A stretch of 64,000 bases of DNA, taken from the IMG/VR virus record IMGVR_UViG_3300030330_003013, positions 2,669 to 66,668 of that record; one strand, given 5' to 3'. The position numbers and the translations under genes were made by a program. The stretch comes from a virus. Lineage: Duplodnaviria; Caudoviricetes. The first letter of the stretch is position 1, and each line of letters starts with the position of its first letter. Below are positions 1 through 64,000 of the stretch, in pieces. The notes under the pieces are model-generated. The model did not search any database. It was not told where the DNA came from and saw nothing but the letters and a program-made list of their open reading frames with translations.

Positions 1-28
1 AATTATTGACTCAAGCAGATTTTTTAAT

Positions 29-3000
29 ATGAATACTGAATCGAGCGGAGGAAGGCCCGGATATACAACCGGAGGTATGGCTCACTTTGACGACTACGAT
101 ATACCTATTGCCGGAACACCTTATTTGTTAGATGCGTATTACAAAAAAGCAGTATCGAATTACAAAAATAGCGGAACAAGTGTTGATGGAACAACAACTA
201 CTAATTTTGCAAATCACGAAAACCAACTTAAGTTTATCAATGATGCCGCAACGCCTATTAACGATATAGGTTTTGGGGATGATACATTAGAATTAGATGA
301 CGCTACTAACTTTGATTTCGGGGCAACAGACGGATACGGAATAATACTTGCAACTAAAGGAACAGGAAAAGATAGTGAAAAGTATTTGTTTGGTCTTAGG
401 TGGAATACCGTAACCGGTAACACACTAAATAATGTTTATATCAATGACCCAAACCTTACTGCAATTGACCCTCAAGCAATTATTACTTCGTTAGATGAAG
501 ACTCCGCATTATGGTCGAGCGGGTCAAGAATGGATATTGCCCTTAAAAGAGAATTAGGAGACGGTCAAACGCTAAATGAAAATGGATATGACGAAATTGT
601 TGTGTATAACACACCAGCCGCACTATATGGATTTAGAATACTAATGAATGTTGATGGTTATATTGAGTTCAAAAACGGAGGAACATATTATGATAGTGAT
701 AAAATAAGAATGTTGCAAAATATAGCCATAATCAATAATTGGACTAATAACTCCACTTTATCATCTATACAAGATATTAACAATGTTCCACTAACAAGAA
801 ATATGACTACTACAAGAATTGCATATAGTTCCGGTGATACAGAAAACTTCGGTGCTATAACAGATTTAAGAGAAAAGACATTTGCAACAAGTATTCGGGA
901 TATAGTAAATACAAGCGGAGAAGGGTCGGATGGAACAAATATAGTATTTTCTCGTGTAGTGGGAAGAGACGGAAGGTTTGATTACAGACCCTCATATAAT
1001 TCCGGATTTACTTTTACAAGAAATAATATGGTAAATAGTGGATTAAGTGTTGATAGCAGTTCAATTATTACAAATATTAGAGCCTTTTACAATGGCGGTC
1101 AATCATTTGTTGATTACCCTAAACCATCAACAGGAACAGAAGCAAGATGGAAAGTTTTAGATTTGTCTTCTGTAAGAAACAAACAAGAAGCAGAAGCATT
1201 AGCAAAAAGAGAATACCATAAAGTAAAAACTTCAAGTATGTCTGTTAGTGTTAAATTAAATAGAGAAAGCGGAGAAAACAATGTAATGTTAAGTAACGCA
1301 AGATACGGATATATTGGAGATGCCGCTATTGTAGGTTTATACGAAACAGGTAGTGAAAAGTTTGGTTCTTCTTGGACTTCGTTATATGGAGGAATACCAT
1401 TTACAGGGATTGCGAATGCTTTAGATGGAAATACAAATAGCACAGAAGTTACAAATGACTTCACTTTAGTTCCGATGATTGATGGAACAGGTAACTATCC
1501 TTCATCTGCTATGCCGGGTCTTGAAGTTGTATCCGTAGTATCGAGCGTTCAAGCAAATGGTGTCGAGTCGCCTATTTCTTGGGCTTCATCGTCTAATACT
1601 CTAAATTGGTCTATTGCGTTTGGTAGCACCGTAGTTTCACAAGTAATAACATCAGACGGATATTATGAAATTGCATCCGGACCAAATAAAATAACAGTTA
1701 AAATAGATTACTCGGAATTACCGTCTTCGGGAACAACCACTAAATCCTATGCTTATGTTTCATTAGCCGATGCCGATAAAGCATACAATACCTATGGTGC
1801 AAAAAGCATATCTCATGCTTTACAAGTAGTAAGTGTGCCTCCTTCTGTGCCTAAAATAAATGACGAAAACCACGAATTAAGAGTAGGAATTAGTATATCG
1901 GGAGGTAGCACCGCCGATGACGCAAGATTCAAAATCCATCTATTAGATTATGATTTTGCAAATACAGGCTCTCCAGCACAATTTACTGAAACACTAAACA
2001 CTAATGGTTCATCAGAAATAGAAGTATATGGTAATGGGTTTTATGAAATGGATTTCCCTACAAGTTGGGGCGCACCTGCTGGTTCTAAATTAGTTATATC
2101 AGTTAATACAGATTATTTGCGAGATGTAATAAGACAAAGATGCAATAATAAAGTAAAAAATGCTAACAATATTCCGGGCCTTTCAGCATTTGCATCAACC
2201 GATAGCGATTCTATTTTCCCGTTAGGGTTTAGAGAGTTTGCGGAGTATGGCGGTATGTCCGAAGATAGAAATGCTTGGTATGCTCCACGCCTTTTTATTG
2301 TTGATGATATTAAGTATGTTCCTTCGACCTATTGCACAATAACCGATACCCACATTGATTTGTCTTCTCAAAGTATGGTTATACAATCAGTCAGTTGGAG
2401 TCAGAAAGAGAGAGACCATGAAATCGTGTCTCTTTCCTTAGAAAGAAACGAATCAAGATATAAAAAGACTCTTGCAAATGTCTTTCAGAACACAAGTGCT
2501 ACGGGCGGTGTAACACAAGAGGCATCACAACAATTTATGCAAGAAGGTTTGTGGTTAGGTAATTTCAACCAAACACAGGGAATAAATACAGAAGGGGGCT
2601 CAACCACAGACGGCCAAAACATTAACACCTTTTCAACAACGGTAACTCAAATGATGAAGGGTGTAAATGAAACACCAGCCGAAACCACTTCTCCGGAGGG
2701 AGAACACGGTATATTGGGGGTGAAAAGAGTAGGTGTGTCGGCATCGGCCAACCTTTCAATTGATGGCTTCGATGCAATAACAGACGGAAGCGGGGGTGTT
2801 GTTGGTTCGGATGGCTTCGTTCTCAACGGAACATATTGCAACGCAGAAGGACTTGCGGCGACCGGAGTAAAACACGAACAATCTTTCATCGTTAGAATCC
2901 CCTCCGATAGCGCAGACTCTCACATAGAATTACTTGCAAAAGCCAGCCTTGATGGTGATTCGTCAAACTCAACGGCAGTAGTTACAACTAAAGTCGAATC

Positions 3001-3265
3001 TTTAGATAGCGGCGTTAGTGCGACAAGAACAACATCAGTCTCTTACTCAGACACAAATAGAAGTGAATACATATTGTATTCCGGAAAGATAAAAGGTGCA
3101 AATGCGGGTTCTTCTCTCAAGGTAACTCTTTCAAGAACACCGAACACAGGAAGCGATAATGCGACTTACAACGCCCTAAGAATACATACTGTGAGGCTAT
3201 CAACGAGAAGACACACGACTACAAATCCGAGTCAAGCAAAGACTTTCAAGCCTTACTCATCGTAG
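29..3265 (+). CDS. Large virion tail-tip/baseplate-associated protein (probably 5'-truncated by the window edge)
   Basis: 1078-aa S/T/N/G-rich, beta-rich ORF. The frame is open from position 2, so the true start probably lies outside the window. Its character matches the post-tape-measure ORF that runs off the right end (62836->64000). Confidence 0.55.
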   Translation: MNTESSGGRPGYTTGGMAHFDDYDIPIAGTPYLLDAYYKKAVSNYKNSGTSVDGTTTTNFANHENQLKFINDAATPINDIGFGDDTLELDDATNFDFGATDGYGIILATKGTGKDSEKYLFGLRWNTVTGNTLNNVYINDPNLTAIDPQAIITSLDEDSALWSSGSRMDIALKRELGDGQTLNENGYDEIVVYNTPAALYGFRILMNVDGYIEFKNGGTYYDSDKIRMLQNIAIINNWTNNSTLSSIQDINNVPLTRNMTTTRIAYSSGDTENFGAITDLREKTFATSIRDIVNTSGEGSDGTNIVFSRVVGRDGRFDYRPSYNSGFTFTRNNMVNSGLSVDSSSIITNIRAFYNGGQSFVDYPKPSTGTEARWKVLDLSSVRNKQEAEALAKREYHKVKTSSMSVSVKLNRESGENNVMLSNARYGYIGDAAIVGLYETGSEKFGSSWTSLYGGIPFTGIANALDGNTNSTEVTNDFTLVPMIDGTGNYPSSAMPGLEVVSVVSSVQANGVESPISWASSSNTLNWSIAFGSTVVSQVITSDGYYEIASGPNKITVKIDYSELPSSGTTTKSYAYVSLADADKAYNTYGAKSISHALQVVSVPPSVPKINDENHELRVGISISGGSTADDARFKIHLLDYDFANTGSPAQFTETLNTNGSSEIEVYGNGFYEMDFPTSWGAPAGSKLVISVNTDYLRDVIRQRCNNKVKNANNIPGLSAFASTDSDSIFPLGFREFAEYGGMSEDRNAWYAPRLFIVDDIKYVPSTYCTITDTHIDLSSQSMVIQSVSWSQKERDHEIVSLSLERNESRYKKTLANVFQNTSATGGVTQEASQQFMQEGLWLGNFNQTQGINTEGGSTTDGQNINTFSTTVTQMMKGVNETPAETTSPEGEHGILGVKRVGVSASANLSIDGFDAITDGSGGVVGSDGFVLNGTYCNAEGLAATGVKHEQSFIVRIPSDSADSHIELLAKASLDGDSSNSTAVVTTKVESLDSGVSATRTTSVSYSDTNRSEYILYSGKIKGANAGSSLKVTLSRTPNTGSDNATYNALRIHTVRLSTRRHTTTNPSQAKTFKPYSS

Positions 3266-3969
3266 GGTCTTCTTAAGGCCAATATCCTATCAGCAATAGG
3301 CGTATTTACCCCTCTAACCGCCGTTAGAGCCTTTCTATTGGTTCGGGTGAGGAGGAGGGCTTTGAAGCCTCCGAAATGGCTTAAAATGGCCTTAGCCATG
3401 TCTTCCGTAACCCCTGCTATTCCCGTCAAAGCGGCTATACGAGGGTCTGCATGACCGGACTTCCCACGCCTTGCCTTCTTAGGTGCGGATAAAGCATTGG
3501 AGATTTGCATTTGTGTGTGTGAGATACTTAGCCATTCAACAAAGTCTTCCATAGTTGCAAACTCTATGAATCTAATCTTGGGGAATCGGTGGTAAATCAT
3601 CATTTTGTAACTTTTCATGGTTTGTTGCATCTTTATTATCTCTTGAGCAACTACTCTTTTTGCAACTCTTTTCCTAAAATACGGCTTCAACTTTCCACCA
3701 TATACGGCTATTATGGGGTATTCATAAGCCTCGCATAAGTCAGAAAGTTGGTGATTCAATGTCCTCTTTCCCCTCCCCTTACCTGTTATCGAGCGGTAAA
3801 AATCATTTATCTCTTTAGCCTCTATGCCCCATGAACCGAGAACATAATCTCCGGTGGTTAGTCTCCTTACCTTTACGAGCCCGTCATCTTCTAAGTCAGC
3901 ATCACCCATGCGAGCAATCAGACTTTGCAAAACCGAAGCACTTTCTCGGTCATCAGCATAGACCACCAT
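3253..3969 (-). CDS. ERCC4/XPF-family structure-specific endonuclease with C-terminal HhH
   Basis: VYADDRE, GDYVLG and IEAKEINDF match the ERCC4 GDY...ERKxxxD motifs; HhH-like LTGIAGVTEDMAKAIL and VRGVNTPIA. Likely ATG at 3969 (the track uses TTG 3978). Confidence 0.85.
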   Translation of the reverse strand: MVVYADDRESASVLQSLIARMGDADLEDDGLVKVRRLTTGDYVLGSWGIEAKEINDFYRSITGKGRGKRTLNHQLSDLCEAYEYPIIAVYGGKLKPYFRKRVAKRVVAQEIIKMQQTMKSYKMMIYHRFPKIRFIEFATMEDFVEWLSISHTQMQISNALSAPKKARRGKSGHADPRIAALTGIAGVTEDMAKAILSHFGGFKALLLTRTNRKALTAVRGVNTPIADRILALRRPYDE

Positions 3970-4006
3970 TAGTTGCAAATTGTAAAGACGGTATTATGAA
4001 GAGTTC

Positions 4007-5135: not shown

Positions 5136-5293
5136 CAAACAACTCTCCTTGCTATTTCGCCTTTGTATCCGCAAATGAGGCAAGAAGCAGTAACTACTTC
5201 GACAGTAGGAACATCAACGCTTCCGGTTACTTGCACGAAGGTTTCCACATTGGAAAAAGTATCACTATCGCATTCCGGACAAACAACTTTCAT
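5135..5293 (-). CDS. 52-aa zinc-ribbon microprotein (not in ORF track)
   Basis: MKVVCPECDSD...ASCLICGYKG has two CxxC motifs; ATGA and TGATG overlaps with both neighbours. Confidence 0.7.
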   Translation of the reverse strand: MKVVCPECDSDTFSNVETFVQVTGSVDVPTVEVVTASCLICGYKGEIARRVV

Positions 5294-6174
5294 GTAAATG
5301 TAACTCCTGTTATTTCTTCCTCACACGCCATACTATAAGCGCACCATTGAGGGCATCTCCAATCATCCCAATTCATATTCCATTCCTCATTCCTTATCTG
5401 TTGCAAAAACTTGTTGAACGACTCTCTAAATGCGTTAAGGGTTCTTTTATTGACCTTTTCTATCACAGTCATACCGCCGTTTTCGCCAACCCATACGGTT
5501 TTATTCCTTTGTTGCAAGAGTTTGTTTGCAAAAGAGAAGTTATCCGCATCCGGTAACACATAAACAAACTTAGTAGCATCTATATCATCCATGTCTTGCA
5601 AGACCATGTGGTAAAACGCCAACTCCTTTCTCGTTTTAGTTATCTTATTGGCGTTAGTAGTGCCTGTTTTCAACTCAAGTATAGCATATTCATCATCGGG
5701 CGCAATAAGCACCCCATCTATTTTTCCAACGATTACTATGTCGTATTCCTCGTGATAGTAGGTTCTCAAATCCTCGTGTTCGTAGGGCGCAAAATACTCG
5801 ACACCCCAATTATCAAGCCTTTGTTGCTCTAATTCGGCCATTATCTGATACACGCTTCCTTCCTGTTCAAACATAGGATAAAGCGTTTGCTCACCATCCC
5901 ACCTATCATAAAACTCATCGAGGGCATCATGCACTTCCGTTCCTCTTCTCATAGCGGTCGTTTCGGGCTTCTTTATGTCCTTCAACAAAACTCTATCCAT
6001 GAAGTATTGGCGAGGGCAGTATAAATACCCCATATAAGACGATTTAGAGACTCTAAGCACCTTACCCTCTTCGGTTGGGTCATAGGAAGACAAACGCCTC
6101 AATGTCTCCCCATCGGCGCATTTCATACATACGCCCGTTACGGGGTGGATTACGCAATCACACATAGGAATCAC
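5290..6174 (-). CDS. Cas4-like PD-(D/E)XK exonuclease (solo, not CRISPR-linked)
   Basis: YLYCPRQY, GTEVH, GKIDG...ILELKTG and C-terminal RCPQWCAYSMAC give the split four-Cys Fe-S pattern. Confidence 0.85.
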   Translation of the reverse strand: MIPMCDCVIHPVTGVCMKCADGETLRRLSSYDPTEEGKVLRVSKSSYMGYLYCPRQYFMDRVLLKDIKKPETTAMRRGTEVHDALDEFYDRWDGEQTLYPMFEQEGSVYQIMAELEQQRLDNWGVEYFAPYEHEDLRTYYHEEYDIVIVGKIDGVLIAPDDEYAILELKTGTTNANKITKTRKELAFYHMVLQDMDDIDATKFVYVLPDADNFSFANKLLQQRNKTVWVGENGGMTVIEKVNKRTLNAFRESFNKFLQQIRNEEWNMNWDDWRCPQWCAYSMACEEEITGVTFT

Positions 6175-6496: not shown

Positions 6497-8740
6497 TCAC
6501 AACCAAACATACTCATCAATACCATTTAGGGCGTTTTCTATTGGTTGTATATCCCAATCCATGATTTTGTAATAATCCGCTACTTTCTTTACAATGAATC
6601 GGTTTGTTATTTCCCTATATCCAACTTTTGCAACTCCTTGCAAGTCTTCTTCGGAATCACAAGCAATATACTTACCGTTTTCGTCAAGAGTTACAAGAAA
6701 TCTTGAGCCCTTCCTATATCCCTTCGCCAAATAATCATTAGCCCACGAAGCACCAGCGGATGCGCCACTAAGCACCGAATAATCTTGCAAGTTTCTTTCC
6801 AACTTGCCCTTCATACACAGTCGTTCAAAGGCCACTTCTCCGGACACAATAGAAGTTACTAATTCCACGAGACTCGTTGTGATTTCCTCTTCGCTTTTCT
6901 TTTGCAACAAACCGAATATCACGAGAGCCATAGCCTCTTTCATAACAGGGAACATTCTTTTCTGTTTCAACTCTATTCCTTTGTAGTATTCGATTGGCTC
7001 ATGTGTGCGACCATCAGTCCAAACGACAGAAGCAGCATATCTGTTTTTTGCTTTGAGCAACATACTATCACACCACCTCTCAAACTCAGTTACTATGGGA
7101 GACATGGATTCATTTATTTCGCTCACCAATTGTATAGTCTGTTCGGGGGAATCAGTTTGAACGAAAGCGGAATCGGTGTGAGAATACAGGACATTATGAC
7201 CTCTTTTCTCGCATTCTTTTCTTAGTCTTGCAAGTGTTTCACGAGATGTAAATGTTATTGCCGCCGCTACTGCGGGGTGATAAAGACCATACTTAGAATC
7301 GCCAGCCGCTCCATACAAAGAAGCAACCATAGACTTAGTAGCGAATTGCAAAGCATCGTATCTCTTCCTTTCCTCATCAGTAGTAGCCGCTCTCATTTTC
7401 GATTTGTATTCCTCTCGTAAATTAGTCATGTTATCCATCTGACGCAAAAGGAGGCTCGGCTTTCCTTGCAAAAACTTAGTGCCGTTCCCACAATCCACCC
7501 CGTCTTCGGATAAAGTTTCGTGGCCTATATTGTGAAGAGCCACATTAGAATGATACATGGCCTTTATGTCGAGAATAGCGACATTATCAAAGATACCCGC
7601 CTTTTGAACGGCGGTTATTTCAGCACCTTGATAATCTTCGTAGGTGAATTGCGGCTTAGTAGGTATTTGCAAATTAAACTCCTCATCCCTCAAAGCAAGA
7701 ACAGTTAGCAACTTAGTTATGTGAGGAGTAGTTGCAATATCACACCCTACAATATGTTGTATAGCCGTGTAATGCTCGATAGCGTTATTCACCGAGTTAA
7801 GTTTAGGCAACAAATCAACATCTTTTATTGCGTATGCAAGATATGTTCCAAAGTCGGTGTAGTATGTATCATGCCCGTCTTGCAACTCAACTTTTGTTTC
7901 CCCTAAGACTTCGGATGAGACAGTTGCAAGTGATTTATCGGGAAGTTGCCCGTTCTTAATAATCCAAAGATGAGTAAAGGCGACCATCAAATCAATAACA
8001 TTCACACCTATAATCGGTTGCCTCCAATCAGTAAAGGAATACACTATTTTATTCAAGGGTGATAGAGTCTTAGGGTCAAGGCCGTTATCATTCATCCGCT
8101 CAACAATCTTCTTTATGTCGGCATTTACCACATTCCATCCGGTAATTATATCGGGGTCGTGTTGGTGTAAAAGTTTTGCAAAAGCCGATAGCATTTCCTT
8201 TTCGCTACTAAATGCTAATGCTGGTTTATCTAATTGCAACAAATCTAAACCATCGGGATGATTCTTTAGGGGGAATTGTGAATGAAATCCGGCTTTGTAG
8301 TCCGGATGCGTGAAGAAAATAAAGTGTTCTTTAGTATAGGTATCATAGACCACCATTATTGTTAGTTTTCCGGTGTTGATAGACCATTCGCAATCGAGAT
8401 ACCATGTTCGGTGTTCGTAATTCGGAGGCATTATTTTCTCTTCGGCCAGCACCCTATTTACAAATGGGATATTCGCCTCCCATGTTCGCAAGGAGGGGTT
8501 ATCGCTCCTAAAGTCTCGGATATTTTCGGGTGCGCTGACTGTTACCTTAGTCAATTCTTCGCCATAAACACCTTTGAATCCGTGTTCGGCATTTATTGCC
8601 GAGTTGCAAATATGAGGAGCGTAGTCTTCGGTTGCAACAAAAAAGAAAGGATTGCTTTTGTAAGTCTCCTCTATTCTATTGCGGTTTTCATCACGCCTTC
8701 GCACGATGATTCCATTCCGCCCCCTCCGAGTAACAATCAT
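6497..8740 (-). CDS. polB: Family B DNA polymerase with 3'-5' exonuclease domain
   Basis: ExoI YLDCEW, ExoII ITGWNVVNAD, motif A LDIKAMYHS, motif B KSMVASLYG, motif C YSHTDS, then KAKNRY. Confidence 0.95.
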   Translation of the reverse strand: MIVTRRGRNGIIVRRRDENRNRIEETYKSNPFFFVATEDYAPHICNSAINAEHGFKGVYGEELTKVTVSAPENIRDFRSDNPSLRTWEANIPFVNRVLAEEKIMPPNYEHRTWYLDCEWSINTGKLTIMVVYDTYTKEHFIFFTHPDYKAGFHSQFPLKNHPDGLDLLQLDKPALAFSSEKEMLSAFAKLLHQHDPDIITGWNVVNADIKKIVERMNDNGLDPKTLSPLNKIVYSFTDWRQPIIGVNVIDLMVAFTHLWIIKNGQLPDKSLATVSSEVLGETKVELQDGHDTYYTDFGTYLAYAIKDVDLLPKLNSVNNAIEHYTAIQHIVGCDIATTPHITKLLTVLALRDEEFNLQIPTKPQFTYEDYQGAEITAVQKAGIFDNVAILDIKAMYHSNVALHNIGHETLSEDGVDCGNGTKFLQGKPSLLLRQMDNMTNLREEYKSKMRAATTDEERKRYDALQFATKSMVASLYGAAGDSKYGLYHPAVAAAITFTSRETLARLRKECEKRGHNVLYSHTDSAFVQTDSPEQTIQLVSEINESMSPIVTEFERWCDSMLLKAKNRYAASVVWTDGRTHEPIEYYKGIELKQKRMFPVMKEAMALVIFGLLQKKSEEEITTSLVELVTSIVSGEVAFERLCMKGKLERNLQDYSVLSGASAGASWANDYLAKGYRKGSRFLVTLDENGKYIACDSEEDLQGVAKVGYREITNRFIVKKVADYYKIMDWDIQPIENALNGIDEYVWL

Positions 8741-9024
8741 CTCCTTCCCCTGTCTCTCGTAGGTATATTATGGCGTTTAAGCCAATTGTTGATAGTCATA
8801 GCAGTTACTCCACATTCGGTCGCTATTTCTTCCATAGTCTTCCCTTCTATACAATATGCTTCCTCTAACCATAGTTTGTCCTTGAACATACCTTCCGGCA
8901 ACTTAGCATAGACCATAACGCTAATCCCGTAGTGTTTGTTGCATTCGGGGCAAACATAAGTAGCAGTAGTATTCGGTTGCAAGTTTGCGCTGAATCTGCA
9001 CCCACAGGAACAATCAACTAACAT
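8737..9024 (-). CDS. Zinc-ribbon + HTH DNA-binding protein
   Basis: CSCG...CPEC followed by KTMEEIATECGVTAMTINNWLKRHNIP. Likely start MLVDC at 9024. Confidence 0.75.
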   Translation of the reverse strand: MLVDCSCGCRFSANLQPNTTATYVCPECNKHYGISVMVYAKLPEGMFKDKLWLEEAYCIEGKTMEEIATECGVTAMTINNWLKRHNIPTRDRGRR

Positions 9025-9871
9025 CTTGCTCCACCCTTTTACCCAGCACGATAACGAAGTTATCATCACATTCCTTGCTTCTAAACCCGAAGACGACCAT
9101 GCCGTTAATATCGTGGAAATCGAATATACTCACAATAGTTTCCGAGCCAAAATATCGCAATAAGTCAATGTTCTCCAAACCACCACCAAACTCATAGTCG
9201 GAATCTAAGATTTGCAAGTAATTTTTTTGGTGTATTTTGGTTTCAGTCTTTCCTTTGAGAAAATCACCAGCACTAATATACATACCATCCTTTTTACCGA
9301 CCAACTTAACATGGGGCAAGTTTTGATTGTTCATGGTGTTGGCCTCCAAACCGTTTTGCAAATGTTCTGTTTTGCAAGTAAATACTAATTCGGGGGAATA
9401 TTCTTCTCCCTTTATTGTGGTGTATGAAGGCACAGTAGGTGAGAGATTTATTCTTTCCATAATCTCGCTCGCTTTGTTTAATTGAGCCTTTATCGTAACT
9501 CTTGCACCCGTATATGCAAATGCGTTTGGTGAAGAAAGTAAAGTCGTTTGTTTGCCCTTGCTCTTTATTTGCAACTTTGTAGCATCACTATCTGTGCTAA
9601 GAGTTACAGGGCAACTGTGGTATTTCAAAGCACCAATCACCGCATCTATGTCTGCAATAGCAAACAGTCCGACAGACGAGGATATAACAGGTATCGTTAA
9701 TCTGTGAAGAGTTGTAACTCCATCCTTTACGATGTTATAAGTTACCACCTTATCGCTATCCATCGAGACAATTATACAGGTCTCGCATTGTGCGGTCTTC
9801 TTCTTGCCGATGTATGCTTCTCTCTTATTGGCTTTCAATAGGCTTATCAAATCTGCTCTCTTGATTATCAT
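9014..9871 (-). CDS. Putative DNA sliding clamp (PCNA-like)
   Basis: Size and helix/strand periodicity resemble the two PCNA half-repeats; it lies between PolB and the clamp loader. No hallmark motif was identified, so this is a fold-level inference. Confidence 0.55.
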   Translation of the reverse strand: MIIKRADLISLLKANKREAYIGKKKTAQCETCIIVSMDSDKVVTYNIVKDGVTTLHRLTIPVISSSVGLFAIADIDAVIGALKYHSCPVTLSTDSDATKLQIKSKGKQTTLLSSPNAFAYTGARVTIKAQLNKASEIMERINLSPTVPSYTTIKGEEYSPELVFTCKTEHLQNGLEANTMNNQNLPHVKLVGKKDGMYISAGDFLKGKTETKIHQKNYLQILDSDYEFGGGLENIDLLRYFGSETIVSIFDFHDINGMVVFGFRSKECDDNFVIVLGKRVEQDVS

Positions 9872-16535: not shown

Positions 16536-16811
16536 TTAAGCCTCCTCTCCCTCTTTCTTAACCTTTTGCAAATATTCTTCGTTTATCCCCCACAAACAAA
16601 CATTACTTCCCTTCTCTTTTATTTGCAAAAAACGAGGGTCTGCCGTCATTAGTCTCGCTATTTGTTGTTTAGTGGGTGGGTTTCTGAACCTTCTTTTCTT
16701 GCCTCGTTGTGTTTTTATTTGTATATCAACTTGCATACCATTTATGGGTCTCGCACCATTTTTCCGTATGTGGTGGAAGACGGCATCTATGAATCTCCGG
16801 TGCTTAACCAC
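16536..16811 (-). CDS. Basic wHTH-like protein
   Basis: PTKQQIARLMTADPRF...CLWGI; similar in style to 21232..21537. Confidence 0.55.
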   Translation of the reverse strand: MVKHRRFIDAVFHHIRKNGARPINGMQVDIQIKTQRGKKRRFRNPPTKQQIARLMTADPRFLQIKEKGSNVCLWGINEEYLQKVKKEGEEA

Positions 16812-48145: not shown

Positions 48146-48171
48146 TAAGAGTAGTGATGTGGTGATGTTGT

Positions 48172-51100: not shown

Positions 51101-52536
51101 CCTCCGGACCGGATACAGCAAAAGTGTTTGCGTTTTCTATACCTGCGGGAGACACCGGACCTACAGGTCCAACAGGTCCAACAGGTCCGACAGGACCAGC
51201 AGGGCCACCCGGACCTACAGGGCCAGCGGGTAGTGATGGTTCAGACGGCTCGGATGGTTCAGATGGTGCGGCGGCGGGATTCGGAACGCCGACCGCCAGC
51301 ACAGGGCCGATAGGAGTTACTGCTTCCGGTCCAGCCACCGCAAAAGTATTTGCTTTCTCTATACCGGCGGGTGCAACAGGACCAGCAGGGCCGACAGGCC
51401 CAACCGGTCCAACAGGCCCTACCGGACCTGCTGGTTCGACCGGTCCGACAGGACCAAGTGGGGTTGCGGGCGGCATAGATGATTTAACGGATGGAAAATC
51501 CGGTGGAACAGATTTCACAGGGAGTTTGTTATTAGGCCACCAAACCACAGGAACATTAAGTAGTGCGGTGTATAACACAGGTGTTGGTATTACCACTTTA
51601 GATGCTTTATCAAGCGGAACGAATAACACCGCTATGGGGTGGGCCGCCGGAACGGCAATATCAACAGCAACAGATGGTGTGTTTATTGGAAAACAGGCCG
51701 GAACGACTAATAGCACAGATAGTAGGGTTGTCGCTATTGGTTCTTCTGCTGGTAAAAATATAGGATTCGGTTCAACCGCAGTTGGTTTTTGGTCTGGGAT
51801 TTGGTCTTTGGCTACTAACTCAGTTTGTATTGGTTATGGGGCTGGTGCAAGAGGAACGTCTGATGCTACGAAAAATGTATTCATAGGAGATATGCCTACT
51901 TATGGCGGTGATGGAACATTTGAGGGAGATTACAATATCGGTATTGGCGATAGTGCTATGTATGCAATCAATGGAAGTGCTAACTATAATATAGGTATTG
52001 GAAGACAGGCTCTTTATACACCCGATGATGGTTCAGACTACAACACAGGCATAGGCTACCGAGCCGCTTACTTGGTTAGTAGCGGGGATAAGAACATCTG
52101 CATTGGAACAGAATCGGGCGATAATATCACCACAGGGTCGAACAACCTTGTAATTGGTAGCGGTGATGTTTCTGACCCTACAGGAGACGACCAATTATTG
52201 ATAACTTCCGGTGATGGTGGAGTTACTTGGTTTAAGGGGAATGCTAACGGATTAGTAGCAAATAAAATTAGTGTAGTAGCCATAACAACCACAACAACAC
52301 TAACTGACGAACAATCGGGCTCGTATGTGTATGTAACAGGTAGTGGTGCGCCCACCCTACCTGCAACCGCAGAAGTAGGCCAACAATACACTATCATTAA
52401 CAACACAGGTTCAGATTTAACACCCGGATTGGGAACAAGCAACAGTAGCATTCCGAGTAGCCACACCGCCATATCTGATGATGCAGCGAGAACCTATGTT
52501 GCGGTTGCCGCGAATACATGGTTCTTTGTGGGGTGA
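48172..52536 (+). CDS. Collagen-like fibre/adhesin protein
   Basis: Long Gly-Pro-Thr triplet runs interrupted by eight ~35-aa globular repeats; one CBM5/12-like insert (WEGNW...YQVDDAVYY...YICIQAHTS...YW); C-terminal N-T-A-x-G beta-roll repeats. Confidence 0.9.
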
Positions 52537-52540
52537 TTAA

Positions 52541-53122
52541 GTGGCTTCAATTAACTTAGGTGTTGTTGGTTGTATAGCCGCAAGCGCAAGTAGTGGTGGT
52601 TCTGCACCAACAGGCGTTAGTATTGCAGAAGCCGCAAGTAGCGGTCAAAATAATGCGTTTAAGGTTACTGATGTTAACCCCGATTTAATGACCGTTGATT
52701 ATTCCGATTGGTCGAGCGCAACGAGCGAATCTTTTGGAACGCAACTTGAAAAAGAAGTTAGTTCGGGTGATTTAGGAGATTTCGACACTTATGGAACTAT
52801 AACTATGGATATTTTTGCTTATTGTCGAGCAACAGGGGCTACATCTTTTTCATGGTCCGGTTCAGTTTATGCTGATAACTTCGGCACAGGTAGTGGCGAC
52901 CCAACCGGTTCTGTTAGTGGTGCTGGTGGTGCAGGTCAAGACGGAACAGGCGCAGGTGGTGTAGGTGTTAGGTTTGTAATAACTCCGGGTTCGGGTAGGG
53001 GTGGTGCTATGAATTGGCCTACAAACGGAAAATACATTATTTTCAAATTAACAGCAACGGCTACTAATTCAAATGGTAGCACTACTGCTGATTTATACTT
53101 AAAATATTCATTTACAGGTTGA
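52541..53122 (+). CDS. G/S/T-rich virion protein
   Basis: Composition and position next to the fibre gene. Confidence 0.55.
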   Translation: MASINLGVVGCIAASASSGGSAPTGVSIAEAASSGQNNAFKVTDVNPDLMTVDYSDWSSATSESFGTQLEKEVSSGDLGDFDTYGTITMDIFAYCRATGATSFSWSGSVYADNFGTGSGDPTGSVSGAGGAGQDGTGAGGVGVRFVITPGSGRGGAMNWPTNGKYIIFKLTATATNSNGSTTADLYLKYSFTG

Positions 53123-53126
53123 TAAT

Positions 53127-53669
53127 ATGAAAATAAATGTTAATATTCCCGCTGGTGTGTCCGGTGATTTTGAAATAGCCCACTACACTAAAGACACGAC
53201 TGATAATAGGTGGCCTCTTTATTTGCTTCATACCAATGAGGCTTATGATAATTATACTGTATTATTAAAAAAAGGCTACAGTATGCCGTTAATGCAAGAC
53301 TCAGAAGCAGAATACAACGACCACCAATGGTTGTGGGATAATGCAGAAGGAGATGTAATTATTGGCGGGTTAGGCGTTGGTTTAGTTAATCATGTTTTGA
53401 TAGATAATCCGAATATTACATCAATTACTATTGTTGAAAAGTATCAAGATGTAATAGATTTAGTATGGGATAACTGCGCTAAAGACGAGCGTTTTAATCT
53501 AATACACGCAGACATAGAAACATGGGAAATACCTACCGATAGTCAATGGGATATTGGCTTCTTCGATACATGGATTTCAAATGATGATTGGGATTTAGAC
53601 GAATACAAAAATAATATGATAGAAAAATATGGTCCTTATATTACAAAAATAAATGGTTGGTGTTGGTAA
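53127..53669 (+). CDS. Class I SAM-dependent methyltransferase (spermidine-synthase-like fold)
   Basis: VIIGGLGVGL (motif I), ITIVEK (motif II), LIHADI and WDIGFFDTW. Confidence 0.85.
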   Translation: MKINVNIPAGVSGDFEIAHYTKDTTDNRWPLYLLHTNEAYDNYTVLLKKGYSMPLMQDSEAEYNDHQWLWDNAEGDVIIGGLGVGLVNHVLIDNPNITSITIVEKYQDVIDLVWDNCAKDERFNLIHADIETWEIPTDSQWDIGFFDTWISNDDWDLDEYKNNMIEKYGPYITKINGWCW

Positions 53670-54261
53670 GTTTATTAGGAAAGAAAAACTACCACATATC
53701 ATGGAACACCCAAATTGGTTACTATACGAAGGAGTCCTTAGCGAAGAAGATTGCAAGCGTTGGATTGACTTAGGCCGACAAGCACCAAAGCAAGAGGCTA
53801 AAACATTTAGAACCGGCGAAGGCGAGTCTGATGCTCACCGCAAAACAGACATTAGATGGCTTCCTAATGTTGGGCCATACACCGAAATGCACGACTTTTT
53901 AATGAAAGTTGCTATGGATGCTAATAAAAGATTCGGTCTTACTCTTACAGAATTACCGCCATTACAATTTACCGAGTATTCAGATGTAGGCCACCACTAC
54001 GGAATGCACCACGATATAGATTGGAACAGGCAAGACGGCAAGCACAGAAAATTGAGTATTGTCGTGCAACTGACCGACCCCGAAGATTACGAGGGAGGAG
54101 TATTGTCTTTTGCACACACACAAAACCCCGACCCCGAAGCACTAATTAAGCGAGGTTCTATCATTTGCTTCCCTTCTTATTTAGAACACGGAGTATCCCC
54201 TATAACATCGGGTTCAAGAACAAGTCTTGTAGGGTGGTTTGAAGGACCACGCTGGCGATAG
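53653..54261 (+). CDS. 2OG-Fe(II) oxygenase (prolyl-hydroxylase-like)
   Basis: QFTEY...GMHHD...RKLSIVVQL...YEGG...FPSYLEHGVSPITSGSRTSLVGW (HxD...H...R); likely start MEHPNW at 53701. Confidence 0.9.
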   Translation: MVGVGKFIRKEKLPHIMEHPNWLLYEGVLSEEDCKRWIDLGRQAPKQEAKTFRTGEGESDAHRKTDIRWLPNVGPYTEMHDFLMKVAMDANKRFGLTLTELPPLQFTEYSDVGHHYGMHHDIDWNRQDGKHRKLSIVVQLTDPEDYEGGVLSFAHTQNPDPEALIKRGSIICFPSYLEHGVSPITSGSRTSLVGWFEGPRWR

Positions 54262-57644: not shown

Positions 57645-58706
57645 ATGACTACATTTGCAAATAGATATGTTTCCGTTGCCGTTGAACACGCCTTCGGAGA
57701 CGCACAAGCCGTTGATGCTTACGGAGAAGTTGATGAAGAATCATTTAATGAGACTTTTGATGTTTTACAAAGACCGGATATGAACAGATATGGGGCTCAG
57801 AAAGCCGTTGATTCAAAGCACTATGCTTCGGGTTCTTTTTCTATGCCTCTTCAACCGGACCAATTCACCATGATTTGTCTTCATGGTATTATGGGAACAC
57901 ATACTCCGGGCGGAACGGCTGGTGTTGATGATAAATTAGAAGAATTATCCACCGGTGAATTGCCCTCATACACATTTAGAATCGGAAGAGACGACCAAGA
58001 ATATACTTTTGCAGGTCAAGTTATCGAATCTATTAGCGTATCATCATCTGTAGGAGAATACGCTATGATGACCGTTAATACTACCGGATGCAAAGCACAA
58101 CACAAAGCATCTGATGGTTCAACTATTGCTTTAACTGCTGGTCTCGGAACACCATCTTATACATACACCGGAGATGCGGCACACTTCGTAGGTGCTTATG
58201 TTAATTTTGAAGACCTTGCAACAACTTCTGCTTACTCAAAGTTAGTGCAATCAATTGACTTTGAAATAAGCACTAATAGAGATATGGATAACTCATATAC
58301 TCTCGGTTCTGATACTTGCGTTAGAGCCCCACCTATGCAACTAAGAGAAATTAGCGGTTCGATTACATTTAGCAAAGCGGTTCTTGCGGCTGATGTATCC
58401 GTTGATGAACCGGACTTTGCTGATTTGTTAGGAAGCGGCTCTTTCCATCATGGAACAGCATCAAACCCCGCAATTTCAGTATTATTCCAAGTTGATACCA
58501 ATAACAAAATACGATTTGATTTCTTCAAGGTTCATTATGACGCACCACAAACTAATGTTAGTGGTCGTGATACCCAAACAATGACTGTTGGTTTTACCGG
58601 ACTTTACGATGAAACAACAACAGATATGATGGAGATTTTGTTTAGTAGTGAAGACACTACACTTAAAGGCAGCGGCGCGACAGACATAGATAGTTTGTCC
58701 TCGTGA
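57645..58706 (+). CDS. Major tail tube protein
   Basis: LPSYTFRIG...FAGQVIESISVS...REISGSIT...SGRDTQTMTVGFTG; precedes the chaperone and tape measure genes. Confidence 0.75.
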   Translation: MTTFANRYVSVAVEHAFGDAQAVDAYGEVDEESFNETFDVLQRPDMNRYGAQKAVDSKHYASGSFSMPLQPDQFTMICLHGIMGTHTPGGTAGVDDKLEELSTGELPSYTFRIGRDDQEYTFAGQVIESISVSSSVGEYAMMTVNTTGCKAQHKASDGSTIALTAGLGTPSYTYTGDAAHFVGAYVNFEDLATTSAYSKLVQSIDFEISTNRDMDNSYTLGSDTCVRAPPMQLREISGSITFSKAVLAADVSVDEPDFADLLGSGSFHHGTASNPAISVLFQVDTNNKIRFDFFKVHYDAPQTNVSGRDTQTMTVGFTGLYDETTTDMMEILFSSEDTTLKGSGATDIDSLSS

Positions 58707-59383: not shown

Positions 59384-62300
59384 ATGGCTTCGCGGACCGG
59401 CTCGGCACGAGTATTCTTTGAGATTGTAGGTCAATTTCAAGCCGAAAGGCTACTTAAAGATGCAGATTCCGCCGCAGTAGTTACAAAAGCAATTTGGCTG
59501 GATGCGGCAGGTGGTATCGTTGAAGCCTTTGAGTTTGCCTTTGATGGTATTAGAGACCTTGTTGAAGAAAATATAGAATCATTCAAGGCATACGAAGAAC
59601 AACTAATACAGGTAAGAAAGTTTTATCAAGGTTCAGAAGAAGACATTATGAAGTTTGCTGATGCTTCAATGTATCTCGGAGAAACCTTTGCGTTTAGCGG
59701 TGCAGAAGCATTGAAAGCCGCCGCTCAAATGGCCCAAATGAAAACTGTTTTAGGAAGCCCCGAAGCGGTTATTGCCGGAACAGAAATGGGTTTGCTTTTT
59801 GCTGAAATAGGTAATATGGATACTCAACTTGCTATGAAGCGTATGACGAGCCTAATGCAACAAACCGGATTTGCTTTAGGTGGTTTAACTCAAGCACAGT
59901 ATGATAATCTCGATGCTCATACCCAAGCACAAGTGGTAATGAGTAACACAATGAGAGTATTAGACCAACTTAACACAATCGAAAACTCTTCTGTTGCGAC
60001 AATGGAAGACATGACTTTCGTTCTAAACCAATTCTCGGCACAGGGTAATTTGGCCGGAGAATCAATGGCGAGTATGGCGGCATTTGCCGCTATCTTGCTT
60101 GAGGCCGGTGAAGAAACAAGTAGGGCCGGAACAGGTCTAAGAATGATTTATTCAAGATTAGCAGTTGATGGAGGAGACGCTTCCGAAGCAATTGCAGAAG
60201 TCGTGCCTCATTTAGATGCAACTACTGTATCCACCATGTCTTTAAGTGGAGTTCTTGATGAGTTAATACCTTATTATGTTCAACTATCAGATATTGAAAA
60301 GGTTAGATTAACACAAGCAATAGCCGGTAATAGGCACTATGTAAAGTTGCAAAAAGTTATTGAGAACCACGAAAGATATATTACATTAACCGGTATGGCT
60401 TATTCCGGAACATACGGGGCAGTTGAAGAGTTTGAGAATCGTCAAGAATCTATGAAGTTTAAGATAGATAAAGCCAATGCTTTGATTGAAAATCAAAGGG
60501 CTTTAGTCGGTGATAATTTAGCAAAAGCCTATGTTAAATCATTAGAACCACAATATCAATTCTTGAAATTATTGGAAAAAAGCACCGATGAGTCCAATAA
60601 GTATTCTGCATCATTGGGTGGTCTTGAGGTAAGTGTAAAGGACACACTTGAAAATATTTTGCTTCTTGGTGCGGCAGTTGAACAACTTAGTTTGCCGCTA
60701 AACTTTGCTATGGGTCTCGGAAACATACTTATTTCCGCTCAAGCCTTTGGTGCAATCAATAGACAAACGAGGGAATTGCAATCTTTCCACACAGAAGCCT
60801 ATGGCCGTAGGGTCTATATGATGGAACAAGAAAAGCAAATGAAATTAGCAAGTTTATTTGATATAGAACAGGCAAGCAAAACTTCTTATGATGCTATGAT
60901 GCAAAGAACCCAACGACAATATGCAATTAACCTTACTAATTCAAAAAGAAATAAATTAAGGGTGCAACAATTAAAACTGCAAAATAAAGAGTTAGAAAAA
61001 CAAGTATTATTATTGGATATGACTAAATCTAAAGATGTAGTGAAAAGTGTTCAATTACAAAAAGAAATACAAGGAAATAAAGATTTAATAGAAATAGGAA
61101 TGCAAAAATCACAAATGCAACTCGCTGAATATCAAACACAAAAGGCTATTTTTCAACAAAGAAACGCTTATGAAAAAGGAATGCAAGCCTATTACAAATT
61201 AAGCATAGGACAAAGAGCGAACCAAGTAAAACAGCAAAAGGCGTTAAGTGGAGCAATTCAAAATACATACAATAATATGGCTAATGAAGTAGTTGTGTTT
61301 AGGGCTTTAACGGAAGAAGAAAGAAAAAGTATAGTTACAAGGGCTCAAGCAAACCAAGTTCAAGCAACAAACATTCAACTTAGATTAAGCGAGATGAGAA
61401 TAAAACTACAAACCGCTAAATTAACCGATGAGGAAAGAGAAGCATTATTAGGGCTTATTGCTGTGGAAGAAGAACATCTAAGAAACTTAGGCGAAGAAAT
61501 AGCAAAAGATGAGATTTTGTTACACGCCGATGAACAAAGAATAAAAAACATAAGGCGAGAAGCACAGGAAGCAACCGTATTAGGACAGGTTATGGATAAT
61601 TTACATGGTTCAAGAGAAGCACATCAAAGAACAATGAGAAATGCAGTATCCATAGGAACAGGTCTATTAGGTATTTATAGTATGACTGCTAAATCGGCAA
61701 GAGATATGGAAGCCGCTATGTATGGTATAATTATAGCACAGGGTCTTTATCAAACCGCTATGTTTATTTCAAAGAAAAGAACCGATGGTTATACTGCAAG
61801 TGTAATTATGGCTCAAATGGCTACTAATATTTTTTATGGCGCAATAGTAGCAGTTGTTGCTTATATGGGTGGTAAAGCACTTGCGAATGCGCTTAACCTA
61901 AGTAGTGCTTTTGATGATTTGTCTTCAAGCACAGAAGAGATGACTAATAATTTCGGTGATTTTGAAAGTGTGTTAAAAGAGTTATCAATGAAAGGAGAAG
62001 AAAGCGTTTTAGGTAATATAGTCGAAGCAAGTTATAACGATTTACGAAATAGTGAAGAAGTTGCAAAAAATGCTCAAGCGGTATTAGAAAATCAAATAAC
62101 TACATACGATGATTTAATGAAAGCACACGACCCCGAATCTGCTGAATATAAATCCGCTCAAGTATCTCACGCTATCGCTCTTCAGAAAAAGAAAGAGGTT
62201 GATGCAATAGTTGATGCTCATAAAGGTGCTGATGGTATATATGCTCAATATGTTGAAGACACAATAAATGAAGTTGATAAACTAAATTATGAGATGACTT

Positions 62301-62839
62301 CGGCTTATGCTAACAGAATGGCCGACTTAACTCAGTATTTTGGTTATAGTGAGGCAGATGCGGAGGCAATAGTTGATAGAGAAGGAATAGCGAGATATGT
62401 GGTTGAGTATGCGGATGGAACGGGTGCTATATTTAAGACGCATGAAGAAATGGAAGCAGATAGACAAAGGGTAACTCAAGAATCTAATGCTAAAATTATA
62501 GAAGATGGCGAAGCATTAGCGGCTTCTTATGAGTCATTGTATGGAACAGTATTAAGTGCAGTTTATGCCGCTGATTCGGAAATATCCGGTTTAGTTAGTG
62601 GCTCATTAGAACAAATGAACGAGTTTGCAAGCGCAAGAGAAGAATTGTTTTTCGGAAGTCAAGCAAACTTTCAAGGGGCAATATACAAACAAATTACACA
62701 AGGGGGAGTTGAAAGTGTTTTGCATAGAGTTGAAATTATACAACATAACCACTTTAACGGTATGACTTTACCGGAAATGGTAAGCCAAGTTACAGAAGGA
62801 GTAATAGTTGAGATGAGAGGACAAGGTGTGCCGATATGA
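59384..62839 (+). CDS. Tail tape measure protein
   Basis: 1151 aa, helical and Ala-rich; TP901-like TMP core, coiled coils and hydrophobic segments. Confidence 0.9.
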   Translation: MASRTGSARVFFEIVGQFQAERLLKDADSAAVVTKAIWLDAAGGIVEAFEFAFDGIRDLVEENIESFKAYEEQLIQVRKFYQGSEEDIMKFADASMYLGETFAFSGAEALKAAAQMAQMKTVLGSPEAVIAGTEMGLLFAEIGNMDTQLAMKRMTSLMQQTGFALGGLTQAQYDNLDAHTQAQVVMSNTMRVLDQLNTIENSSVATMEDMTFVLNQFSAQGNLAGESMASMAAFAAILLEAGEETSRAGTGLRMIYSRLAVDGGDASEAIAEVVPHLDATTVSTMSLSGVLDELIPYYVQLSDIEKVRLTQAIAGNRHYVKLQKVIENHERYITLTGMAYSGTYGAVEEFENRQESMKFKIDKANALIENQRALVGDNLAKAYVKSLEPQYQFLKLLEKSTDESNKYSASLGGLEVSVKDTLENILLLGAAVEQLSLPLNFAMGLGNILISAQAFGAINRQTRELQSFHTEAYGRRVYMMEQEKQMKLASLFDIEQASKTSYDAMMQRTQRQYAINLTNSKRNKLRVQQLKLQNKELEKQVLLLDMTKSKDVVKSVQLQKEIQGNKDLIEIGMQKSQMQLAEYQTQKAIFQQRNAYEKGMQAYYKLSIGQRANQVKQQKALSGAIQNTYNNMANEVVVFRALTEEERKSIVTRAQANQVQATNIQLRLSEMRIKLQTAKLTDEEREALLGLIAVEEEHLRNLGEEIAKDEILLHADEQRIKNIRREAQEATVLGQVMDNLHGSREAHQRTMRNAVSIGTGLLGIYSMTAKSARDMEAAMYGIIIAQGLYQTAMFISKKRTDGYTASVIMAQMATNIFYGAIVAVVAYMGGKALANALNLSSAFDDLSSSTEEMTNNFGDFESVLKELSMKGEESVLGNIVEASYNDLRNSEEVAKNAQAVLENQITTYDDLMKAHDPESAEYKSAQVSHAIALQKKKEVDAIVDAHKGADGIYAQYVEDTINEVDKLNYEMTSAYANRMADLTQYFGYSEADAEAIVDREGIARYVVEYADGTGAIFKTHEEMEADRQRVTQESNAKIIEDGEALAASYESLYGTVLSAVYAADSEISGLVSGSLEQMNEFASAREELFFGSQANFQGAIYKQITQGGVESVLHRVEIIQHNHFNGMTLPEMVSQVTEGVIVEMRGQGVPI

Positions 62840-64000
62840 GAACCACATCAAATACACTTAACATTTGGCTTGCCGGATATTATGATGATTTTATGTCTTG
62901 TAGGTCTGTTCCCGATGATAGCAACGCTTCAACTGTAAGAGATATAGACCATACCGCAACACATCACGGAAACCCAATGAACGGAGAAGCAACACTTAAT
63001 CCCCGTTATAGATACTCATTACCCGACAGGTCTCAACTTGCAACTTATGAAAGTGCAAATGATAATCTTACAGCAGATGTATTTTTTGCAACTTCTTCTG
63101 TTGCAACTATTTCTAATTCGGGGATACACGAATGGCTTACCCTCGACACAATACGAAGAGGTTATAATAATTGGGAAGGGCGAGCGCAGTTGCAATATCC
63201 GGATTCAAGGCGTGGCTCAAGGCAACGATTTAATGGGGCGGCTGGTGATTCCTACGAGGCTTTTGTAAATGGACACGATACAAGAGGCGTTTATTACGCT
63301 CCTCTCGGAGACATTGATTCCACTATGGGAAGGTCTCGTGTTATATCAAGGGCCGCTCGTGATAGCAATTCGACAATGTATATCGGTGCTGGTTCTCACC
63401 AGCAAGCAGAAAGAGCCGGTCATACTACTACTCATTCAATATCTCTTGCAAGTATTTTATCCGGCGAAAGAACAGACAAAACTACTACATCATCGGGGGC
63501 AAATAGAGGAAATGCAAGAAAGCATCTATACCCTCTTCGTTCTCCCGCAGGGCAACCGTTTTTAATATCAAAACTCCATCAAAAGGAAACTAATACTTCC
63601 GGAGGGAATAGATATAGGATTCTAAACTATGATGGTAAGATGCAGTTTTCCGGACTCGGTGATACATTTAACATACGAATGGCCTCGCATACATTTGGTG
63701 ATTGGGCGGGGCAACAATACACACTAAAAATAGGTTATCCGAAATCGGGTGGGTTTAATAAATCCACACAAACATTTAGTGGAACACCAGCAATAACAGT
63801 TAATATACCTATAAGTGATTTAACAAGTGGTAATTTAGAAATAGATACCTATACCTATGGAAATAATAATAATTATTGGGATGATATAGATATAGTTATG
63901 GACTTTACCGCTCAAACATACAAAGTGTATATTGACGGCACACAATTAGGAGGAACGGGCTCTATGGCTGGAAGTTACCAGCCCGATGATATATTCGGGT
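62836..64000 (+). CDS. Tail-tip/baseplate protein, 3'-truncated (not in ORF track because there is no stop)
   Basis: ATGA overlap with the TMP stop; MRTTSNTLNIWLAGYYDDF... stays open to the window end (388 codons). Confidence 0.7.
   Translation, partial: MRTTSNTLNIWLAGYYDDFMSCRSVPDDSNASTVRDIDHTATHHGNPMNGEATLNPRYRYSLPDRSQLATYESANDNLTADVFFATSSVATISNSGIHEWLTLDTIRRGYNNWEGRAQLQYPDSRRGSRQRFNGAAGDSYEAFVNGHDTRGVYYAPLGDIDSTMGRSRVISRAARDSNSTMYIGAGSHQQAERAGHTTTHSISLASILSGERTDKTTTSSGANRGNARKHLYPLRSPAGQPFLISKLHQKETNTSGGNRYRILNYDGKMQFSGLGDTFNIRMASHTFGDWAGQQYTLKIGYPKSGGFNKSTQTFSGTPAITVNIPISDLTSGNLEIDTYTYGNNNNYWDDIDIVMDFTAQTYKVYIDGTQLGGTGSMAGSYQPDDIFG

Follow-up and report, generated by a model that had tools for sequence, protein, structure and literature searches.

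TTGCAA, a palindrome close to saturation in a marine tailed-virus genome purged of nearly all others

Why should a virus whose genome has shed almost every short palindrome carry one of them more often than any other hexamer? The question is raised by a 64,000-nucleotide stretch of a tailed virus (Caudoviricetes), positions 2,669 to 66,668 of the IMG/VR record IMGVR_UViG_3300030330_003013 and hereafter called the window, for which an earlier note had claimed a genome-wide excess of the palindrome TTGCAA. The claim is borne out, and more strongly than it was put: TTGCAA occurs 208 times in positions 1 to 64000, is in excess under every null, and ranks first among the 4096 hexamers of the window by count, by order-0 z-score and by order-3 z-score, outnumbering the next-commonest hexamer more than twofold. 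It is first of 4096 also in a relative, G005. The four positions quoted earlier (3555, 3973, 4850 and 5401) all hold the word, and the interval from 3.5 to 9.0 kb, credited with about 30 copies where about 2 were expected, contains exactly 30 against 1.7 predicted by composition.

Expectations for the whole window rise with the order of the model, from 19.3 copies by mononucleotide composition to 27.9 at order 1, 55 at order 2 and 95 at order 3, leaving an excess of 10.8-fold over the first, 3.8-fold over order 2 and 2.2-fold over order 3. The Markov check that the earlier note had proposed therefore sustains the excess through order 3; an order-4 model predicts 184 copies (ratio 1.13), a figure that is uninformative as a refutation because the TTGCA and TGCAA counts behind it derive mostly from the motif, and we reject as a test a model that contains the motif's own pentamers. 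Codon-aware nulls, based on 80 called open reading frames (ORFs) that span 93% of the window, leave the excess standing: coding DNA holds 195 copies, compared with 58 ± 6 when synonymous codons are shuffled gene by gene (z = 22), 30 ± 5 when codons are permuted, and 73 ± 5 when the synonymous shuffle is barred from using any hexamer absent from the window.

That the word does not reflect amino-acid usage, as had been supposed, is clear from the same shuffle and from its distribution over all three codon phases (71, 100 and 24 copies, each three to four times its own expectation) and, with no difference in density, over coding DNA (3.25 per kb) and non-coding DNA (3.2 per kb). Where the encoded protein leaves room for it, the word is usually present: 191 of the 294 synonymously possible positions in the window (65%) are occupied. 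Leucine-glutamine pairs are spelled TTGCAA in 67 of 90 cases, with TTG making up only 24% of leucine codons, and the dipeptide is itself 1.95-fold over-represented. Taken together, the reading frames, the spacers, the shuffles and the occupancy indicate a signal that acts on DNA and is close to saturation.

This abundance stands out against a background of systematic removal. GATC, CTAG, AGCT and GTAC are all missing from the window (241 expected of each), with only two copies of ACGT and eight of CGCG remaining. Of the 64 hexamer palindromes, 47 do not occur; 513 hexamers lack a single copy on either strand, compared with 0.45 after synonymous shuffling. Many of the purged words, 5-mers and asymmetric words among them, match classic Type II or IIS sites (CCWGG, GTSAC, CASTG, TGSCA, GGNNCC, GTNNAC, CCNNGG, RAATTY, RCATGY, RGCGCY, CYCGRG, CTGAAG, CTGGAG, GCAATG, ACTGG and GGGAC). 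Amid this near-total purge of palindromes, TTGCAA is the single one to have gone the opposite way. Avoidance of restriction sites occurs in phages and in archaeal viruses (PMC6286503) and accounts for the purged background and for the absence of the word in relatives; but avoidance removes words and cannot yield a tenfold excess. In the full-text literature we found no mention of palindrome purging or of iterated words in magroviruses, the group whose description this virus fits (see below). The second enriched palindrome of the window, TCCGGA, occurs 43 times where 11 are expected, and in coding DNA 39 times against 17.7 under the synonymous shuffle (z = 5.5). Part of its excess comes from collagen-repeat words such as ACCGGACC, for example inside the gene at 48172-52536.

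A possible explanation is that the purge itself produces the excess, with some 500 forbidden hexamers funnelling codon and dipeptide choice into TTGCAA. Words close to it (TGGCA, TGCCA, ATGCAT, CTGCAG and GTGCAC) are indeed purged, and barring the absent hexamers does lift the synonymous expectation from 58 to 73. However, the constrained null still falls short of the 195 copies by about 25 standard deviations; relatives with equally severe purges (455-539 absent hexamers) contain no TTGCAA and no other genome-wide word; and CAATTG, another tolerated palindrome, is not enriched (26 copies against 29.5). On the strength of the constrained shuffle and of those relatives we reject this explanation, to which we assign next to no probability.

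The relatives are informative in a further respect. By its gene set, its genome of 66.7 kb and its kin, which come from marine metagenomes, the virus (its genome is designated G000) fits the published description of the magroviruses, head-tail viruses of Marine Group II archaea with genomes of 65-100 kb, an archaeal-type replisome and a halovirus-like PolB (PMC5434244); this is a match to the description and not to named magrovirus genomes. The earlier note had called for the same test on other magroviruses, and its outcome depends on the degree of kinship. In close kin, represented by at least 8 independent assemblies with PolB 81-99% identical, TTGCAA is again the top hexamer, at 3.2-5.0 per kb. 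Among more distant kin, three complete genomes have none and a fourth, G004, has 21 copies where 21 are expected, and 76 loci outside both motif-bearing clades (974 kb, with some redundancy) contain 9 copies against 311 expected. Outside the motif clade, then, TTGCAA belongs with the words that have been purged.

TTGCAA is likewise missing from the sister clade (PolB 65% identical; genome G001). In its place (G)TTGCTA(A) and its complement occur, with 224 copies in 71 kb, and 206 copies of the TTGCTA type in coding DNA where synonymous shuffling gives 64 ± 7. This one-letter variant is asymmetric and is not purged in other lineages; it occurs 123 times in forward and 101 times in reverse orientation, the two mixed in every 5-kb bin, and is densest in the replication arm. 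In a PolB tree (a quick IQ-TREE search, with support from the Shimodaira-Hasegawa-like approximate likelihood ratio test only), the 7 TTGCAA rows (3.2-5.0 per kb) and the 2 TTGCTA rows (4.1-4.3 per kb) form one clade with 100% support, and the other 42 rows, rich in neither word, fall outside it and have 0-0.2 TTGCAA per kb. Where the genomes of the two clades align, 17 of 113 TTGCAA sites lie exactly over TTGCTA or TAGCAA in the sister genome, several times more than for any other word one letter removed.

Individual sites are also retained. When the window is compared with a relative at 75% DNA identity, 49 of 72 TTGCAA sites (68%) are kept, against 23% for all hexamers and 20% for hexamers of the same phase lying 9-18 bp away, and TTGCAA is the best conserved of the 129 hexamers with enough copies to be assessed. 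Between sister-clade genomes with 90% identity, the proportion of TTGCTA/TAGCAA sites retained is 87%, compared with 56% overall. Gains and losses of TTGCAA are balanced (23 and 25). Mere tolerance of the word, which we also entertained, is rejected: G004 holds it at the level of chance, and the words tolerated in G005 stand at or below expectation.

A process of no benefit to the virus might nevertheless leave much the same traces. A Vsr-type or template-directed bias of repair or conversion, turning near-cognate words into TTGCAA, would, if strong and constant, also give near-saturation and conservation of sites. A bias of this type is among the proposals made for HIP1, the highly iterated palindrome of cyanobacteria, and is established for CCWGG under Dcm and Vsr. 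Unfortunately for this explanation, the words one letter removed from TTGCAA are not depleted (TTACAA 45 against 26, TTGTAA 36 against 24, the others at 1.1-1.9 times expectation), with the deamination neighbours TTGTAA and TTACAA standing at 1.5-1.7 times expectation, and a search for a Vsr homologue returned no PF03852 match. In addition, the precursors of TTGCAA sites are several letters away from the word, the leucine-glutamine enrichment lies at the protein level, and the flanking preferences set out next extend over 10 bp. We give conversion bias only a small chance of being the answer.

Those preferences are dyad-symmetric. The positions -2 and +2 are A or T in 84-89% of copies, A is avoided at -1 and T at +1, and the extended preference is W-B-TTGCAA-V-W, of which A[G/C]TTGCAA[G/C]T is the best 10-bp form; the 5' neighbour had been given earlier as A, G or C, but is in fact T, G or C, with A disfavoured. 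The probability that a TTG preceded by a given pair of letters is completed to TTGCAA falls from 0.30 after AG and 0.29 after AC to 0.02 after GA, and the order of the pairs is identical in G005. The symmetry of the rule holds although the genes of the arm in which the word is densest share one strand. A longer palindrome or hairpin around the core was considered and rejected, with fully palindromic 10-mers numbering 17 where 24 are expected.

Copies are not spread evenly between the two arms of the genome. The replication or early arm (3253-34000, genes on the minus strand) has 152 copies (5.0 per kb) and fills 137 of 179 synonymous positions (77%, against about 47% elsewhere), and the packaging and structural arm (34000-64000) has 48 (1.6 per kb), which is still 2.6-3.1 times the expectation from synonymous shuffling; the lower density reported earlier for the structural arm is thus correct. 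Structural proteins are 75-87% identical to those of the sister clade, compared with 50-65% for replication proteins, and the higher occupancy of the early arm fits either a stronger need for the word in that arm or a structural module that is younger and was exchanged. The longest interval without TTGCAA, 47557-53750 on the plus strand, comprises the collagen-repeat fibre gene (48172-52536, G+C 0.50-0.55) and two small ORFs, and is mostly a matter of composition and repeats since the synonymous expectation in the fibre gene is only 0.6. The second, 33997-35192 on the minus strand, is wholly free of the word, as the earlier note had observed for the ORF at 34058-34915 that it contains; this ORF has no homologue in the four relatives compared, and the region would fit a recent acquisition that has yet to take up TTGCAA.

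Within the dense arm the copies lie 202 bp apart on average and are spaced more evenly than a Poisson process would place them (coefficient of variation 0.77), largely because the available positions are saturated (P = 0.07); the search for periodicity that had been suggested revealed no convincing period. The spacing nevertheless bears on the possibility that the word serves in priming, with the viral archaeo-eukaryotic primase starting at TTGCAA and a dense supply of sites on both strands speeding lagging-strand synthesis. An interval of about 200 bp resembles the length of archaeal Okazaki fragments, and the template words of primases are known to differ among related phages. A primase is, moreover, encoded by magroviruses (PMC5434244). 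Against this, the sister word shows no switch of strand, the same replisome genes are present in clades without such a word, a dyad flank rule of 10 bp is unexpected for recognition of a single strand, and the regularity owes much to saturation. We consider a role in priming very improbable.

Methylation, too, has to be weighed, and with it two systems already described. HIP1 (GCGATCGC) is over-represented 15-300-fold in cyanobacteria, is selected, and is tied to orphan methyltransferases (PMC5861425, PMC4390886). The comparison that had been drawn with it holds at the level of pattern: each is a palindrome far above expectation, present in all coding frames and in spacers, conserved at individual sites, and of debated function. 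TTGCAA differs in being a 6-bp core in a 67-kb virus and not an 8-mer in a cellular chromosome, in having no cognate methyltransferase that we could find, in being purged by close relatives, and in having an asymmetric one-letter variant in a sister clade; since it is a different word, in a viral genome of 66.7 kb, we regard it as an analogue of HIP1 and not as a member. In haloarchaeal tailed viruses, GATC reaches 6.5-11 per kb when a Dam methyltransferase is encoded and is absent when it is not (PMC8651126), so that there, too, archaeal tailed viruses with related genomes either abound in a word or purge it. But those viruses encode the writer, and their excess is modest (about 2-3-fold, by our estimate), whereas G000 combines an excess of about tenfold and near-saturation of synonymous positions with no detectable writer. 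G000 thus shares the pattern of the GATC/Dam type without the methyltransferase that defines it, and what is new with respect to both systems is the total purge of the word in relatives and the one-letter variant of the sister.

On this explanation, a viral or host methyltransferase would free TTGCAA from restriction, and methyl-dependent functions would then select for copies, in the manner of HIP1 or Dam. It draws support from the on/off pattern among relatives, which matches that of the haloarchaeal viruses (PMC8651126), from the association of HIP1 with orphan methyltransferases (PMC4390886), and from the purging of TTGCAA by relatives as though an enzyme restricting it were common. The absence of a methyltransferase gene that the earlier note reported is, however, upheld in the complete genome: about 70 ORFs, among them every one of at least 150 amino acids, were scanned against Pfam and yielded no DNA methyltransferase, six-frame searches with PF01555, PF02086, PF00145 and PF02384 gave no match (a very divergent or a host enzyme being possible), and a scan for (D/N/S)PP(Y/F/W) revealed no protein with a credible motif I. 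The ORF at 53127-53669 has no methyltransferase match in Pfam, its top match being HipA_2 with an E-value of 0.015. G005 does encode a methyltransferase (PF01555, N6/N4, E-value 6.6e-35, G005:46847-47641), inserted between the orthologues of the window genes 16811-18103 and 18112-18879; but this enzyme, the only methyltransferase in the clade, is absent from G000 despite the same TTGCAA excess, and the words that G005 tolerates are at or below expectation (GTAC 102, ACGT 60 and CGCG 58 copies; loci L074-L076, from the record of L067). Furthermore, the sister word is asymmetric and not purged elsewhere, and losses of TTGCAA show no clear excess of C-to-T changes. Methylation therefore strikes us as an unlikely basis for the excess, if one to be taken seriously.

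A second precedent is provided by words that steer a protein machine. As is proposed for TTGCAA, Chi and the DNA uptake and uptake signal sequences (DUS/USS) of bacteria are genome-wide, selected words that act in a density-dependent way by marking DNA for such a machine. They are asymmetric, strand-skewed and cellular, with RecBCD/AddAB and ComP as their readers, and the TTGCAA excess is similar in size to that of Chi. A Chi-like word would switch a helicase-nuclease, either of the host or of the virus (which encodes several nucleases, with PD-(D/E)XK, ERCC4 and DP1-like proteins as candidates), so that it no longer degrades DNA but recombines or repairs it, and many closely spaced copies would thereby protect linear viral DNA; a recent study links HIP1 itself to recombination during transformation (bioRxiv 10.1101/2024.09.10.611283). 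Yet TTGCAA is palindromic and viral, in contrast to those asymmetric, strand-skewed words with their known readers; the TTGCTA variant has no orientation bias (123 against 101), and a density of 5 per kb far exceeds that of any known Chi. A Chi-like function appears improbable.

Of the four roles that had been proposed (a methylation mark, a binding site, a Chi-like signal and mutational bias), the data single out none, though Vsr-type bias is disfavoured and a Chi-like signal fits poorly. We tentatively favour, at somewhat less than an even chance, the interpretation that TTGCAA is a selected and vertically inherited recognition word, with the 10-bp dyad A[G/C]TTGCAA[G/C]T, and that it is read by a protein that is probably viral. 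The ancestor of the TTGCAA and TTGCTA clades would have acquired or retuned a sequence-specific protein, most likely encoded by the virus itself, and every position able to hold the word without harm to a protein would thereafter have been pushed towards TTGCAA, with the sister clade employing its one-letter variant. The near-saturation suggests a benefit that grows with density, as would be the case if the word marked viral DNA as self, either to shield it from nucleases or to recruit viral machinery preferentially. That the determinant is viral and not of the host is suggested by the constancy of the excess among lineages that have not purged the same 4-mers: L180 tolerates CTAG, G005 and L181 tolerate GTAC and ACGT, and G000 tolerates none of them. 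GATC and AGCT are essentially absent from nearly all family members examined, the exception being L003, with 12 and 7 copies.

A more specific form of this interpretation, possible but somewhat more doubtful, is that TTGCAA constitutes a private and evolvable identity word, saturated in the viral genome, by which a protein encoded by the virus distinguishes viral DNA from that of the host. A nuclease of the virus, for example the SNase homologue, might then break down cellular DNA and leave the viral genome intact, or incoming DNA might be shielded; word and reader would then co-evolve by single-letter switches between sister lineages, as from TTGCAA to TTGCTA.

Which protein might read the word? 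The only clear sequence-specific DNA-binding fold that we found belongs to a zinc-ribbon and helix-turn-helix protein adjoining PolB (8737-9069, minus strand; Pfam HTH_23, 1.6e-5), whose recognition helix differs slightly in the TTGCTA clade; it is a weak candidate reader. Other genes, roughly 15 in all, are restricted to the two motif clades among the five genomes compared, and include an SNase homologue (41821-42198, plus strand; Pfam SNase, 2.4e-12), a PolD-DP1-like metallophosphoesterase (37767-38960), a protein resembling (deoxy)nucleoside monophosphate kinases (13220-13789), a 236-amino-acid protein with only three close homologues (19402-20112), a His/Cys-rich protein of 164 amino acids (21765-22259) and a basic protein of 91 amino acids (16536-16811). 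The SNase, DP1-like and kinase-like proteins could together form a module that degrades host DNA and salvages its nucleotides, and the SNase may in some way be linked to the motif. The ESM Atlas yielded nothing for the clade-specific 236-amino-acid protein, and for a basic protein of 252 amino acids it gave a match resembling tail-completion proteins.

Several observations weigh against a selected word with a viral reader. Most proteins of the replication arm have no match in Pfam, PHROGs or NCBIfam (the latter two searched with 10 such dark ORFs), and no reader was found among them. The helix-turn-helix protein is kept in every clade, whether or not an iterated word is present, and the SNase, DP1-like and kinase-like genes and several dark ORFs correlate with the motif through one phylogenetic event only. 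Compensatory turnover of sites between relatives is not significant and amounts to a trend (P = 0.07-0.23). A reader or writer encoded by the host is possible, and sequence data alone cannot separate selection from a strong site-specific conversion bias.

A signature shared with the host, which the earlier note had thought worth seeking, was not found in 401 Thermoplasmatota genomes, although the true host may lie outside that sample: TTGCAA reaches at most 1.7 per kb, and in the five genomes richest in it the excess is 1.07-1.39 times the order-3 expectation, with ranks of 16-926 and without the flank rule. Five Thermoplasmatota genomes with G+C contents of 33-37% (G181, G011, G082, G064 and G166; loci L158-L177) are strongly depleted in ACGT (0-30 copies against about 245), GTAC, CTAG, GATC, TCGA and many hexamer palindromes, a set that overlaps the one purged by the virus family. 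These archaea could be relatives of the host, or could simply have common restriction systems.

The window covers 96% of a single contig of 66,668 bp, rated 100% complete by CheckV. Its two ends fall within what is probably a single ORF of about 2,357 amino acids (62836-63999, 1-3265 and G000:1-2668, which is L178), downstream of the tape measure gene and with an orthologue of 2,329 amino acids in G001; no part of it has a Pfam domain. Since both ends lie within one ORF, the assembly represents a permuted complete genome broken in that gene. The replication arm encodes, all on the minus strand, an ERCC4 nuclease (3253-3978), a PD-(D/E)XK nuclease (5290-6174), PolB (6497-8740), an RFC-like clamp-loader ATPase nearest to those of Thermoplasmata (12295-13239) and an AAA_5 ATPase (31561-33387). 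The best named relatives of PolB are in haloarchaeal tailed viruses, at 24% identity. In the packaging and structural arm are TerL (36031-37536), the tail tube protein (57645-58706) and the tape measure protein (59384-62839), together with the collagen-repeat fibre (plus strand) and a 2-oxoglutarate-Fe(II) oxygenase (53653-54261, E-value 4.7e-16) that fits a collagen prolyl hydroxylase. The position of the DP1-like gene, adjoining the packaging genes, recalls magrovirus group C. A PolB search of GTDB genomes gave no provirus or host link. A 61-kb contig assigned to an 'Opitutales bacterium' metagenome-assembled genome (L085; CAXXDF010000003.1) encodes an RFC-like protein whose full-length identity with that of the virus is 44%, much higher than for any match from cellular archaea, and is probably a related archaeal virus contig misbinned into the bacterial genome.

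Two other repeated words were noticed in the family. The first, AAATTTGTAGC, was considered as a third iterated word in G003 and G004 and rejected, as it forms a local array in a region of small ORFs 7-10 kb long. Some 75-85 copies of AAATTTGTAGC(ATA) lie at about 45.8-53.0 kb in G003 (L079) and 63.8-71.8 kb in G004 (L084), some of them in 15-bp tandem arrays and others in a 16-bp palindrome, GCTACAAATTTGTAGC, every 400-450 bp; the array resembles an operator or iteron system serving the early region. The second is the octamer GACCCCGA (often TGACCCCGAA), present 4-6 times per 22 kb where 0.1-0.2 are expected, in the PolB neighbourhoods L006, L013, L036, L041, L009 and L054 of distant kin, which belong to several clades that are otherwise scarcely alike in DNA sequence. 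The octamer may have a conserved regulatory role.

Cells are where iterated identity words have been known, HIP1, Chi and the uptake sequences among them, and after thirty years the function of HIP1 is still debated. Here a signal of this kind is found within a genome of 67 kb and about 85 genes. The three contrasts that the family offers, between a clade with TTGCAA, a sister with a one-letter variant and relatives that delete the word, narrow the search for a reader to a few dozen small genes, and the sister variant supplies a built-in control for specificity, which makes the question testable at the bench; suitable binding probes would be AGTTGCAACT against AGTTGCTAAC and scrambled sequences. 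If TTGCAA is indeed an identity word, it would represent a new class of viral system for distinguishing self from non-self. More broadly, selection in one direction or the other acts on almost every short palindrome of these abundant ocean viruses, which bears on host defence in the uncultured Marine Group II archaea and on the prediction of hosts from k-mers.

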